A DNA stretch of 64,000 nucleotides, taken from assembly GCF_044324785.1 (NCBI RefSeq), contig NZ_CP172127.1. One strand, 5' to 3'. The stretch's first letter is position 1, and the number at the start of each line of letters is the position of its first letter. Both the position numbers and the translations under genes were made by a program. Positions 82 through 4,508 of the stretch are shown one piece after another. The notes under the pieces were generated by a model, which ran no database searches, had not been told where the DNA came from, and worked only from the letters and a program-made list of their open reading frames with translations. The DNA is from Escherichia coli (GTDB lineage: Bacteria > Pseudomonadota > Gammaproteobacteria > Enterobacterales > Enterobacteriaceae).

Positions 82-957
82 TCAATGCTCTCCTCTGAAC
101 ACCTCTTTTCTGTGCCATTCAACAAACTGCTCGCCCGGATAATTTTCTTTAACCGGTGGCAACGCAATCGCCTTTCCCGCAAAATCCCAGAACAGTCGCT
201 GTACCACTCCACCACCATTTACCGCGCCGGAAACCACCACACGCATATTTTCATCCAAGCCAATCGAACCGCGATCAAACGCTTTATGATGGATTGCGCA
301 CAATGCCAGGCCATTAGGTACTTCACAAGGGCCATGGTGCTGCTTCCATCTGATATGAGCGGCTTCCAGAGCAATCGGCGCATTGTCGTGGCGCATGTTA
401 AAGCCGCAGATAGCGCACTGATAATTGTAAGCACGTAGCACCATCTGGCGAAACTTCGGATCGCGTTGACGGAGAGAGGTGCGAATATCAAAACCCATCT
501 CGTCAGCGATCTCTTCCTGAATACTGGCCGGGAAATGCGCCTCCAGGAGCTGCTGCGCCAGCGTATCAATTAACCTGTGATTTTTTGCCACCAACGCAAA
601 ATTATCGGCATCAAATCCACCAGCAACATTATATTCAATGAGTTCTCGTCGGGGCGGCTGGCGGCTACCACTGGTTGAGCACAGTTCCGCGTTATGTAGT
701 TCCCAGAAGCCATCGCCCTTCAGACGCCAGAACGGCATGTCCGGGCGCTGGTCACGGCGCTGCGGTCCATAACGTTCCAGGAGATCCAACAGGGGCTCGT
801 AGATTTCAGAACCATAGTTAAACAGGCGACCATGACCCTGCCGATAGTGTGAGAGAACGTACAGCAGCAATAATGGCTTATGTGGCGCACGTTGTTCGCC
901 TTTGCGCCAGATGGTGATATTTGATATCGCTTGCTTTAGGGTTTTGTCAGAGGTCAT
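82..957 (-). CDS. HNH-nuclease-domain protein (C-terminal CxxC...H...N...CxxHH motif), island cargo gene; N-terminal ~190 aa of unknown function
   Basis: ORF track 82..1002; start moved to internal ATG at 957 (291 aa). C-terminus carries YQCAICGF...AAHIRWKQHHGP...NGLALCAIHHKAFD, typical of HNH/His-Me finger nucleases. No clear Shine-Dalgarno, so start is uncertain. Confidence 0.6.
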   Translation of the reverse strand: MTSDKTLKQAISNITIWRKGEQRAPHKPLLLLYVLSHYRQGHGRLFNYGSEIYEPLLDLLERYGPQRRDQRPDMPFWRLKGDGFWELHNAELCSTSGSRQPPRRELIEYNVAGGFDADNFALVAKNHRLIDTLAQQLLEAHFPASIQEEIADEMGFDIRTSLRQRDPKFRQMVLRAYNYQCAICGFNMRHDNAPIALEAAHIRWKQHHGPCEVPNGLALCAIHHKAFDRGSIGLDENMRVVVSGAVNGGGVVQRLFWDFAGKAIALPPVKENYPGEQFVEWHRKEVFRGEH

Positions 958-1101
958 TGCGTTGGAGAATCCATGAGCACATATTTGCGATGATGCTCGC
1001 AACTATATGTACATTCAAGGCATTATTGCAGACATCCTTTTTCTCTGGCGGTTCTGTACCTGGCAGATAGAATTCTGATAACAACGGTAAAAAATACAGC
1101 G

Positions 1102-1172: not shown

Positions 1173-2441
1173 TCACTCGCCATTACCCCGATTGATCTTC
1201 GCATAGTCAAACGGCGTAATCGCTCTCTCCCGATTCGCATCCAGAAAATCGGCCCACCACTGCAACATCAGCTTGCGCTCATCCAGATGTTCCGCTTTAT
1301 GGATATACGCCGCTCGCACCGAATTGCGCTCCATATGACTCATCTGTCGTTCCACCGCATCCTTCGACCATAACCCGGACTCAATTAACGAGCTACAGGC
1401 CATTGTGCGGAAGCCGTGGCCGCAAACTTCAACCTTAGTGTCATAACCCATCACCCGTAGCGCACTGTTCACCGTGTTTTCACTCATGGGCTTACGCGGA
1501 TCGTGATCGCCAATAAAAATCAGCTCATGCTCACCACAGAACTGCTTTATCTGCTTCAGGATCGCCAGCGCCTGCTTTGAAAGCGGCACCAGATGCGGTG
1601 TGCGCATCTTTGTTCCTCGCTGAGAATGTTTCACGCCGGGAATCGGTTCTCGCTCAGGAGGGATGGTCCACATTGATGTTTCAAAATCGATCTCTGACCA
1701 ACGAGCAAAACGCAGCTCACTGGACCGAATAAAGATAAGCAGAGTGAGTTCTGTCGCCCAGCGGGTTAGCGGCCTGCCGGTATAGCCGTCTATTTTCTCA
1801 AGCAACTCAGGGATGCGCTTTAACTCCAGCGCCGGACGATGCTGTCGATTACTGGAAGCAACCGCCCCCGCCATCTCTTGCGCCGGATTGTAATCAATTA
1901 ACCCGCTTTGCACTGCATAACGCATGATGGCCGTGGTGCGCTGTTGAAGGCGGGAAGCCACTTCAAGGCGTCCGGATTTCTCCACGGCTTTAATAGGAAT
2001 TAACAGATCGCGGGTGCCTAGTTCAGCAATATTGCGAGTACCAATTGCCGGGAAGATATTGTCCTCCAGGCTCTTTTTTACACGATTAGCATGATCTTCC
2101 GACCATTTTTGGTTGGTTACGAACCACTCTCTGGCAACCTTCTCGAAAGTAATAATCTCTTTCGCCTGCTCTTCTTTCACAGCACGCTTATGCTCACGAG
2201 GATCGATACCAGCAGCTACCAGCTTTCTGGCCTCTTCCCTTTTCTTCCGCGCATCCGCCAGTGAAACATCCGGGTAAACGCCGAACGCCATCAAATGTTG
2301 TTTACCGCCAAAACGGAAACGAAATCGCCAATACTTTGAACCGCCAGGTTTTACAAGTAAGGACATGCCGTCGCCGTCAACAAGTGAATACTCTTTCTCC
2401 TCTGGTTTCGCAGAACGAACTTTAGTATCCGTTAGGGCCAT
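1173..2441 (-). CDS. P4-family (CP4-like) tyrosine integrase
   Basis: ORF track 1173..2519 begins with GTG; start placed at ATG for MALTDTKV with GGAAGGAAG RBS (422 aa). N-terminal arm-binding motif GSKYWRFRFRFGGK, C-terminal catalytic region, and position directly beside the tRNA-Leu 3' end. Confidence 0.9.
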   Translation of the reverse strand: MALTDTKVRSAKPEEKEYSLVDGDGMSLLVKPGGSKYWRFRFRFGGKQHLMAFGVYPDVSLADARKKREEARKLVAAGIDPREHKRAVKEEQAKEIITFEKVAREWFVTNQKWSEDHANRVKKSLEDNIFPAIGTRNIAELGTRDLLIPIKAVEKSGRLEVASRLQQRTTAIMRYAVQSGLIDYNPAQEMAGAVASSNRQHRPALELKRIPELLEKIDGYTGRPLTRWATELTLLIFIRSSELRFARWSEIDFETSMWTIPPEREPIPGVKHSQRGTKMRTPHLVPLSKQALAILKQIKQFCGEHELIFIGDHDPRKPMSENTVNSALRVMGYDTKVEVCGHGFRTMACSSLIESGLWSKDAVERQMSHMERNSVRAAYIHKAEHLDERKLMLQWWADFLDANRERAITPFDYAKINRGNGE

Positions 2442-2467
2442 AGTGGTCTTCCTTCCATTGGTATCTC

Positions 2468-2519
2468 GTGAGTATACAAGCAATATCGAATCGGCAAATA
2501 TACTCATTAGTATACTCAC
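2468..2519. repeat. Inverted 10-bp repeat GTGAGTATAC / GTATACTCAC plus extra TATACTCA copy in the integrase 5' region
   Basis: Seen directly at 2468-2477 and 2510-2519, with a further TATACTCA at ~2499-2506; lies between the integrase start and leuX. Confidence 0.5.
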
Positions 2520-2603
2520 AAGCCTGTTGATGTGGGTTGAGTCAGGTTGACTTCAGTTGAGGAGAAAAGCTGGAAAAGCCTTGTGTAGCGCGGATTTCAG
2601 GCA

Positions 2604-2628
2604 TAAAAAAAGACCTCAGTTGAGGTCT
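2604..2628 (-). terminator. Rho-independent terminator downstream of leuX
   Basis: Hairpin AGACCTCA-GT-TGAGGTCT followed on the minus strand by a T7 tract. Confidence 0.75.
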
Positions 2629-3944: not shown

Positions 3945-4508
3945 TCATTCGCAGCGCTGATCTGAGGCGCTGCCCCCTTTCGCACATATTCTGTCTTGTC
4001 GTATCGCCAGCACGGCCTGCCGACATTGTTCGGTGACATTGGCAATATCATGGTTGATATCAATGCGCACAATATCCTGTTCATCTGCTTGTGGACGCTC
4101 CAGCGCCTCAAACTGACTTTTTAGTAACGCTACCGGCATAAAATGCCCAGCCCGCCGCTGCATTCGCGCGAGAATAGTTTCATAGTCGCCATCTAACCAG
4201 AGGAAATGAACATGGGGGCTACCCTTGCGTAAAATATCACGATACTGTTTTTTTAATGATGAACAGACAATAAATCCTGTTTCATTCTTTTTATAAAGAC
4301 TGTATGAAGCATCATTTAAGCGTTCCAGCCAGGGAAGTCGATCTTCATCAGATAATGGAATACCCTGCGACATTTTATCTATATTTTTGGCTGGATGAAG
4401 ATCGTCACCATCAATAAATTTAGCAGATAATAACGCGGCAACCTTGCTACCAATTAATGTTTTACCACTCCCTGAAACGCCCATCAAAATAAAGCTTTCA
4501 CCCGCCAT
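3945..4508 (-). CDS. idnK: Gluconate kinase (thermosensitive, GntV)
   Basis: 187 aa, Walker A GVSGSGKT; sits divergent to idnD. Confidence 0.92.
   Translation of the reverse strand: MAGESFILMGVSGSGKTLIGSKVAALLSAKFIDGDDLHPAKNIDKMSQGIPLSDEDRLPWLERLNDASYSLYKKNETGFIVCSSLKKQYRDILRKGSPHVHFLWLDGDYETILARMQRRAGHFMPVALLKSQFEALERPQADEQDIVRIDINHDIANVTEQCRQAVLAIRQDRICAKGGSASDQRCE

Follow-up and report, generated by a model that had tools for sequence, protein, structure and literature searches.

Repeats between leuX and the integrase gene of an Escherichia coli defense island are probable arm-type sites of its P4-family integrase

We find that the short inverted and direct repeats upstream of the integrase gene of a leuX-inserted defense island are, with a probability of roughly 85%, the int-proximal P′-arm arm-type sites of the island's own P4-family integrase (Int), located in attL and doubling as an operator. 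Three copies of the GTATACTCA repeat, read directly from the letters, are present within the window, i.e., the whole 64-kb stretch of E. coli DNA analyzed here. The geometry of these sites, their conservation, their co-variation with the N-terminal domain of Int, and the copies present on the far arm of related islands are all directly observed. Physical binding of the repeats by Int, a requirement for them in recombination, and repression of int would follow by analogy with phage P4 and ICEMlSymR7A. Sites of this kind have already been characterized experimentally in relatives, and what is new here is a distinct motif class.

The integrase gene (int, 1173–2441, minus strand) encodes a tyrosine integrase of 422 aa that was assigned to the P4 family from its domains and the alignment of homologues. 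The protein comprises an Arm-DNA-bind_3 domain (residues 3–87, Pfam E = 5e-29) together with Phage_int_M and Phage_integrase domains, and is 57% identical to P4 Int. The tRNA-Leu(CAA) gene leuX (2642–2726) is also on the minus strand, separated from int by a gap of 200 bp, and the repeats sit inside this gap and outside the coding sequence. The last 20 nt at the 3′ end of leuX (2642–2661) are identical to the annotated 20-bp P4 attP core GAGTCCGGCCTTCGGCACCA, and this segment is therefore the core of attL. leuX is bordered by core genes (ahr, idnK, and others) on its right and by the island on its left. The intrinsic terminator of leuX (2604–2628, minus strand; stem 2611–2628, then a T run) is part of the element-borne P′ arm, and the same 50 bp of the terminator region follow the core copy that precedes a second island in E. 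coli W.

The island's first cargo gene (82–1002, minus strand) encodes a phosphorothioated-DNA-binding (phosphorothioate-dependent) restriction endonuclease, and the cargo of related islands includes type I restriction-modification, a TIR-domain protein, AbiEii, CbtA/YeeU, and an AlpA-like gene. Among the defense-island hotspots of E. coli, leuX has the heaviest occupancy (hotspot 37; PMC12707154), and leuX islands are able to excise and reintegrate via a P4-like integrase, as described for PAI II536 (PMC3202238).

The original prediction placed the repeats at the 5′ end of the integrase gene and over its first codons. This placement is wrong: the true start is ATG 2441 (MALTDTKVRSAKP...), which every homologue aligns with and which RefSeq uses for this gene in both E. 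coli W and E9, and the repeats are located 27–78 bp upstream of it. The residue encoded at ATG 2441 aligns with Met1 of a paralogous integrase and with a conserved Met of P4 Int, and a Shine-Dalgarno-like GGAAGGA (2450–2456, minus strand) that is conserved within the clade lies 8 nt upstream. A start at GTG 2519, which would yield a 448-aa ORF (1173–2519), was rejected as a purely mechanical ORF that begins at the first possible start after a stop codon. Since the repeats lie upstream of the true start codon, no coding constraint acts on them.

In contrast to their placement, the perfect 10-bp inverted repeat and its extra copy are confirmed, with GTGAGTATAC at 2468–2477, its perfect reverse complement GTATACTCAC at 2510–2519, and TATACTCA at 2499–2506. 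The inverted repeat can be extended to 13 nt at 92%, and the same-strand copies of TATACTCA start at 2499 and 2511, i.e., 12 bp apart start to start. We refer to the three copies as candidate arm-type sites P′1, P′2, and P′3. P′1 (2511–2518, minus strand; extended GTGAGTATAC, 2510–2519) reads TGAGTATA on the int strand and is the first tandem copy, followed 12 bp later by P′2 (2499–2506, minus strand; TGAGTATA). P′3 (2469–2476, plus strand; TGAGTATA, extended 2468–2477) is inverted relative to both, starting 42 bp after P′1 on the int strand and ending 27 bp before the int ATG. Among relatives, P′2 is the most degenerate copy: E. coli W has TAAGTATA in its place, and other genera have CGAGTATA or TTAGTATA.

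The repeat is enriched in the window and clustered at this location. TATACTCA occurs six times in the 64-kb window versus 1.00 expected, a count reached in 0 of 100 shuffles, and three of the six copies fall inside 51 bp. With up to one mismatch allowed per copy, 2499–2518 is the sole tandem of TGAGTATA with 12-bp spacing in the whole window. The remaining three matches (12979, 26552, and 60987) were dismissed as isolated singles in core genes, each lacking a 12-bp partner.

The arrangement of the three copies corresponds to that of the attachment site of phage P4, for which we used the records X05947 and X51522 (Pierson & Kahn 1987). Both elements target the same leuX 3′ end through an identical 20-bp core, and their integrases belong to the same family. 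In the P4 record, features named "attP arm sequence repeats" flank the core: a tandem pair plus one inverted copy toward int, and a second tandem pair on the opposite side. The int-side copies are arranged as in the window, with the direct copies offset by 12 bp and the inverted copy closer to int. The first int-side site, TGAGTATA in the window and TGGGGGCA in P4, is separated from the core by 123 bp and 113 bp, respectively; the second site follows at 12 bp start to start in both (TGAGTATA and TGGGGGCA); and the inverted site follows the first by 42 bp in the window (TATACTCA) and by 41 bp in P4 (TGCCCCCA). P′1 itself occupies the position of the P4 arm sequence repeat at 3954–3965 of X51522. 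No DNA similarity to P4 is detected by blastn over the 381-bp region; as P4 was reached via the protein, the correspondence between the window and P4 is positional and not one of sequence identity.

The alignment of related int 5′ regions, put forward in the original prediction as a check of whether the repeats are conserved, was carried out at two levels: the repeats themselves are conserved within the clade, and their layout, with co-varying motifs, recurs across the family. At the level of the family, a scan of one genome per species gave 80 loci with integrases that are 41–98% identical; 77 of these loci, together with the window, P4, and the second int of E. coli W, make up the 80 upstream regions compared. 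We searched 330 bp upstream of int for a pair of 8-mers spaced 8–16 bp apart accompanied by a downstream inverted copy, with at most one mismatch in total. The layout with a spacing of exactly 12 bp is present in 56 of the 80 regions and in approximately none of the shuffled sequences, and in 51 of these 56 loci the inverted copy starts 41–43 bp downstream of the leading direct copy. The only other enriched spacing, 8 bp at 22 loci, was traced to the acceptor stem of leuX and represents no new repeat. At nearly every locus, a tRNA gene (Leu, Phe, Asn, Arg, Pro, SeC, Ala, or Met) is located 185–300 bp upstream in the same orientation.

The family motif is TGnnGGTA, and its classes include TGTTGGTA (19 loci), TGAGTATA (9 loci), TGCGGGTA (8 loci), TGGGGGTA, TGACGGTA, and others, with TGGGGGCA in P4. 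The motif of the window fits TGnnGGTA at TG (positions 1–2) and TA (positions 7–8), whereas its positions 5–6 are TA where 76–82% of loci have G. At the level of the TGAGTATA clade, 11 sequences with Int identities from 78% to 100% were compared over columns −60 to +51, from genera including Escherichia, Pantoea, Pectobacterium, Cedecea, Enterobacter, Shimwellia, Tatumella, and others. Here, 2 of 24 repeat columns are variable versus 49 of 88 neighboring columns (Fisher p = 2e-5).

The motif also tracks the domain of Int that would read it. At a matched identity of 0.8–0.9 over the rest of the protein, the N-domain identity is 0.88 for pairs of integrases sharing the same motif versus 0.67 for pairs whose motifs differ by at least 2 nt, and the trend has the same direction in every identity band. 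We note that integrase pairs are phylogenetically non-independent, and this co-variation is therefore supportive and not proof. The N-domains of the TGAGTATA class carry S/T19, V21, F40, F42, and H49, whereas other classes carry K19, T21, L40, Y42, and K49, and, judging from these alignments, residues 19, 21, 40, 42, and 49 are candidate specificity residues for the change of the motif from GG to TA.

We also observe that integrases targeting tRNA-Leu(CAA) (loci L005–L066) use at least five arm motifs, namely TGAGTATA, TGCGGGTA, TGTTGGTA/TGATGGTA, TGGGGGTC/TGGGGGTA, and, in P4, TGGGGGCA. Such a combination of the same core target with a differing arm code could insulate tandem islands from each other.

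If the repeats are arm-type sites, two additional copies would be expected beside a core copy at the opposite end of the island. This end lies beyond position 1, outside the window, and we turned to E. coli W, in which both int and the first cargo gene are the same (96.5% identity over 4 kb). The relevant tandem-island loci span 22900–24472 of L004 (E. coli W, NC_017664) and 1–1240 of L085 (E. coli E9). In E. coli W, two tandem copies of TGAGTATAC are located at 22912–22919 and 22924–22931, 12 bp apart. This pair represents the only other clustered TATACTCA sites in L004, has the orientation of P′1 and P′2, and is followed after 55 bp by a degenerate leuX 3′-end copy, GAGCGGTGCGGCCTTCGCACCA; the corresponding gap in the P arm of P4 is 56 bp. 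The far end in E. coli E9 is structured as in W, with two tandem TGAGTATAC copies and a degenerate core copy. The core copies at the junctions of the W and E9 tandem islands contain indels relative to the leuX 3′ end.

Right after the junction in W, a second P4-like integrase (76% identical) is encoded; in both W and E9, two islands are arranged in tandem at leuX. Upstream of this second integrase we find TGCGGGTA, 12 bp, TGCGGGTA, and then an inverted TACCCACA, i.e., the same layout with another motif. A far-arm tandem of TGCGGGTA belonging to the second island was searched for in E. coli W and not found, and the second int of E. coli E9 is frameshifted.

These far-arm data bear on mobility, which can be scored from sequence by an intact int, three int-side sites, two far-arm sites, and a core copy. 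Scored in this manner, the first island of W and E9 appears complete except for its degenerate far-end core, the second island lacks a far arm, and most E. coli with this int lack a far arm of the W type. Indeed, of 5426 complete E. coli genomes, 1380 contain the 200 bp on the int side (at least 80% coverage), O157:H7 and O111 among them, and only 21–25 contain a far arm of the W type. Given this rarity, many copies of the module may be stranded; most may be remnants in which the sites are left with autoregulation as their sole role, or with none, or may use a different far arm. In the window, int, the leuX core, and the three int-side sites are all intact, and, since the far island end is outside it, the window alone does not settle mobility.

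The positions of the repeats relative to putative promoters suggest a second role. A strict sigma-70 scan of the window region finds no promoter, and a relaxed scan yields only weak int promoter candidates with 8–9 of 12 consensus matches. The first candidate combines CCCACA (2531–2536), a 16-bp spacer, and TATACT (2509–2514); it is at the position equivalent to that in P4, and its −10 is inside P′1, which overlaps this −10-like hexamer at the same place as the annotated int −10 of P4. The second candidate combines TTGCCG (15-bp spacer) or TTTGCC (16-bp spacer) with a second TATACT (2471–2476) located within P′3. In the P4 record, the int −35 (GTTGAAA) is annotated 13–19 nt before the first tandem site and the −10 (CATAAT) across the junction of the tandem sites. 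An anchored alignment of 50 distinct loci reveals TTGACA-like hexamers at the P4 −35 position in many distant members, and in the same alignment the conserved TA that ends the arm motif starts a TAnnnT hexamer.

Because both candidate −10s are inside a repeat, bound Int would occlude the −10 and should repress int. Where an integrase gene follows a co-oriented tRNA gene, negative autoregulation has been predicted and partly verified, a rule that arises because the int promoter lies within attL (Panis, PMC2951348). The 200-bp gap in the window compares with a published mean of 208–228 bp for loci predicted to be autoregulated (PMC2951348). In P4, Int reportedly binds DNA directly close to the start of int transcription and thereby represses int, which Vis also down-regulates (Piazzolla 2006, as cited in PMC2951348).

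Together, these data suggest how the sites may operate. The N-terminal Arm-DNA-bind_3 domain of Int would bind TGAGTATA at the tandem P′1 and P′2 and at the inverted P′3, while the C-terminal domains would bind the core in the leuX 3′ end. With two tandem sites on the far arm, this would produce a bridged nucleoprotein complex for integration and excision, and Int bound to the repeats would also repress int, resulting in negative autoregulation. The proposal that the repeats form a binding array for the integrase, as arm-type sites or for autoregulation, thus appears well supported at the sequence level by their conservation within the clade, the family-wide layout, the match to P4, and the far arm of W and E9.

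Two further elements of the P′ arm are adjacent to these sites. Four TCAAC repeats (2526–2560, minus strand; GTTGA on the plus strand at 2526, 2536, 2546, and 2556, with an exact spacing of 10 bp) sit between the leuX terminator and P′1. In an alignment of 50 distinct loci of the P4 family, phased (G)TC.A(C) boxes recur at −42, −32, −22, and −12 from P′1, including at loci with another arm motif. By analogy with directionality factors of the AlpA/Vis/RdfS type, the TCAAC boxes are candidate excisionase sites. Between P′2 and P′3, a spacer box, ATTCGAT (2485–2491, minus strand), has the family form GGTTCGAT; of 50 family loci, 31 contain GTTC[GA]A in this spacer, and TTCGATA does not vary among members of the TGAGTATA clade. 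The spacer box resembles the tRNA T-loop GGTTCGA. A search of the arm by eye for the IHF consensus (WATCAANNNNTTR) gave imperfect matches only.

Given these neighboring elements, we considered whether the repeats could be operators for another DNA-binding protein of the island, i.e., an AlpA/Vis-type excisionase or a repressor, instead of sites for the integrase. The directionality factor of P4 reportedly binds between the core and int. That of ICEMlSymR7A also binds there (PMC11963761), the homologous island of W and E9 encodes an AlpA-family protein, and a cognate regulator had been allowed for in the original prediction. We nonetheless consider this reading unlikely because directionality factors use direct repeats one helix turn apart (PMC7498355), whereas the repeats described here are a 12-bp tandem plus an inverted copy and are present on both arms; the adjoining TCAAC boxes (2526–2560), with their 10-bp phasing, suit such a factor better. 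Moreover, the positions of the repeats match the P4 arm repeats and the IntS P sites one-to-one, the site-by-site match to P1–P5 of ICEMlSymR7A being drawn from a text description, and the motif tracks the N-domain of Int.

The inverted repeat might also act as RNA, as a hairpin in the int 5′ leader that serves as an attenuator or as an element controlling stability or translation. Provided that the region is transcribed, a hairpin with a 13-bp stem is indeed predicted for the RNA of 2432–2522 (minus strand; −25 kcal/mol, z = −3.7), the repeat arms co-vary between clades as those of a conserved hairpin would, and an action of P4 Vis on int mRNA has been proposed (PMC2951348). However, the same co-variation is expected for inverted protein-binding sites, and a hairpin leaves the 12-bp tandem copy and the two far-end copies unexplained. 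In addition, with the candidate −10s inside P′1 or P′3, the 5′ arm of the hairpin would not be transcribed, and we regard this explanation as very unlikely. Finally, the motif includes a near-consensus −10 hexamer and the region is AT-rich, which could point to a chance cluster or to duplicated −10 hexamers (TATACT) devoid of any protein-specific role. This is extremely improbable in view of the enrichment of the 8-mer (6 versus 1.0 expected, 3 in 51 bp), the retention of the copies across genera while the spacers vary, the use of the same layout with GC-rich, non-−10-like motifs in other clades, and the near absence of the layout from shuffled sequences.

Taking the repeats as arm-type sites of Int, the arm motif should predict which integrases can act on tandem neighboring islands. 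A broader reading, which we put forward tentatively and consider doubtful, is that the arm motifs of P4-family integrases competing for tRNA-Leu(CAA) have diversified into at least five classes, with TGAGTATA as an outlier class coupled to K19S/T, Y42F, and K49H. Tandem islands such as those of E. coli W would then be recombinationally insulated, the GGTTCGAT box would be an undescribed family-wide element of the intasome, and the repeats of the window would be one readout of an arm code that sets the individuality of islands at the defense hotspot.

The organization proposed here for the repeats, as arm-type sites and operator of the island's own integrase, can be compared with several known systems. 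The arm-type sites of lambda Int (P1, P2, and P′1–P′3) are the paradigm of a heterobivalent integrase. Lambda differs from the arrangement proposed here in that its arm-binding domain comes from another family, its int promoter lies clear of attL, and its three P′ sites are all direct repeats. The principle is nonetheless alike: the N-terminal domain of lambda Int binds arm sites that are unlike the core sites, and three consecutive sites are present in the P′ arm (PMC9791396). A closer regulatory likeness is found in KplE1 IntS/TorI at argW, where the tRNA gene and int have the same orientation, the promoter is inside attL, and Int represses itself near the −10 (Panis 2010, PMC2951348), although that integrase belongs to another clade and uses other sites.

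P4 differs from the window in its motif, TGGGGGCA versus TGAGTATA(C), and in the position of the inverted site, which is at the annotated int start in P4, whereas P′3 is 27 bp upstream of the ATG. We observe that the annotated P4 int start (MCPQMKLN..., X05947 327–345) precedes by four codons the Met aligned with residue 1 of all homologues; if this second ATG is the real start of P4 int, the inverted arm repeat of P4 is also upstream of the coding sequence. P4 is, furthermore, a satellite phage with experimental data, whereas the element of the window is a defense-gene island known from its sequence.

The 283-bp attP of ICEMlSymR7A contains five IntS arm-type motifs, TGKTGGTATC, all of which are required for efficient integration (PMC11963761; primary Verdonk 2019 Plasmid 104:102416), and IntS lowers expression from PintS (Verdonk 2025, PMC11963761). 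RdfS binds a 40-bp stretch that overlaps P3 just upstream of intS (PMC11963761). The host and the target tRNA are different, and the motif differs from that of the window at four positions. TGKTGGTATC corresponds to the TGTTGGTA class of our survey (19 loci) and belongs to the same motif family as the repeats of the window, and the directionality factor site of ICEMlSymR7A is located just core-proximal to the first int-side site, the same place that the TCAAC boxes occupy in the window.
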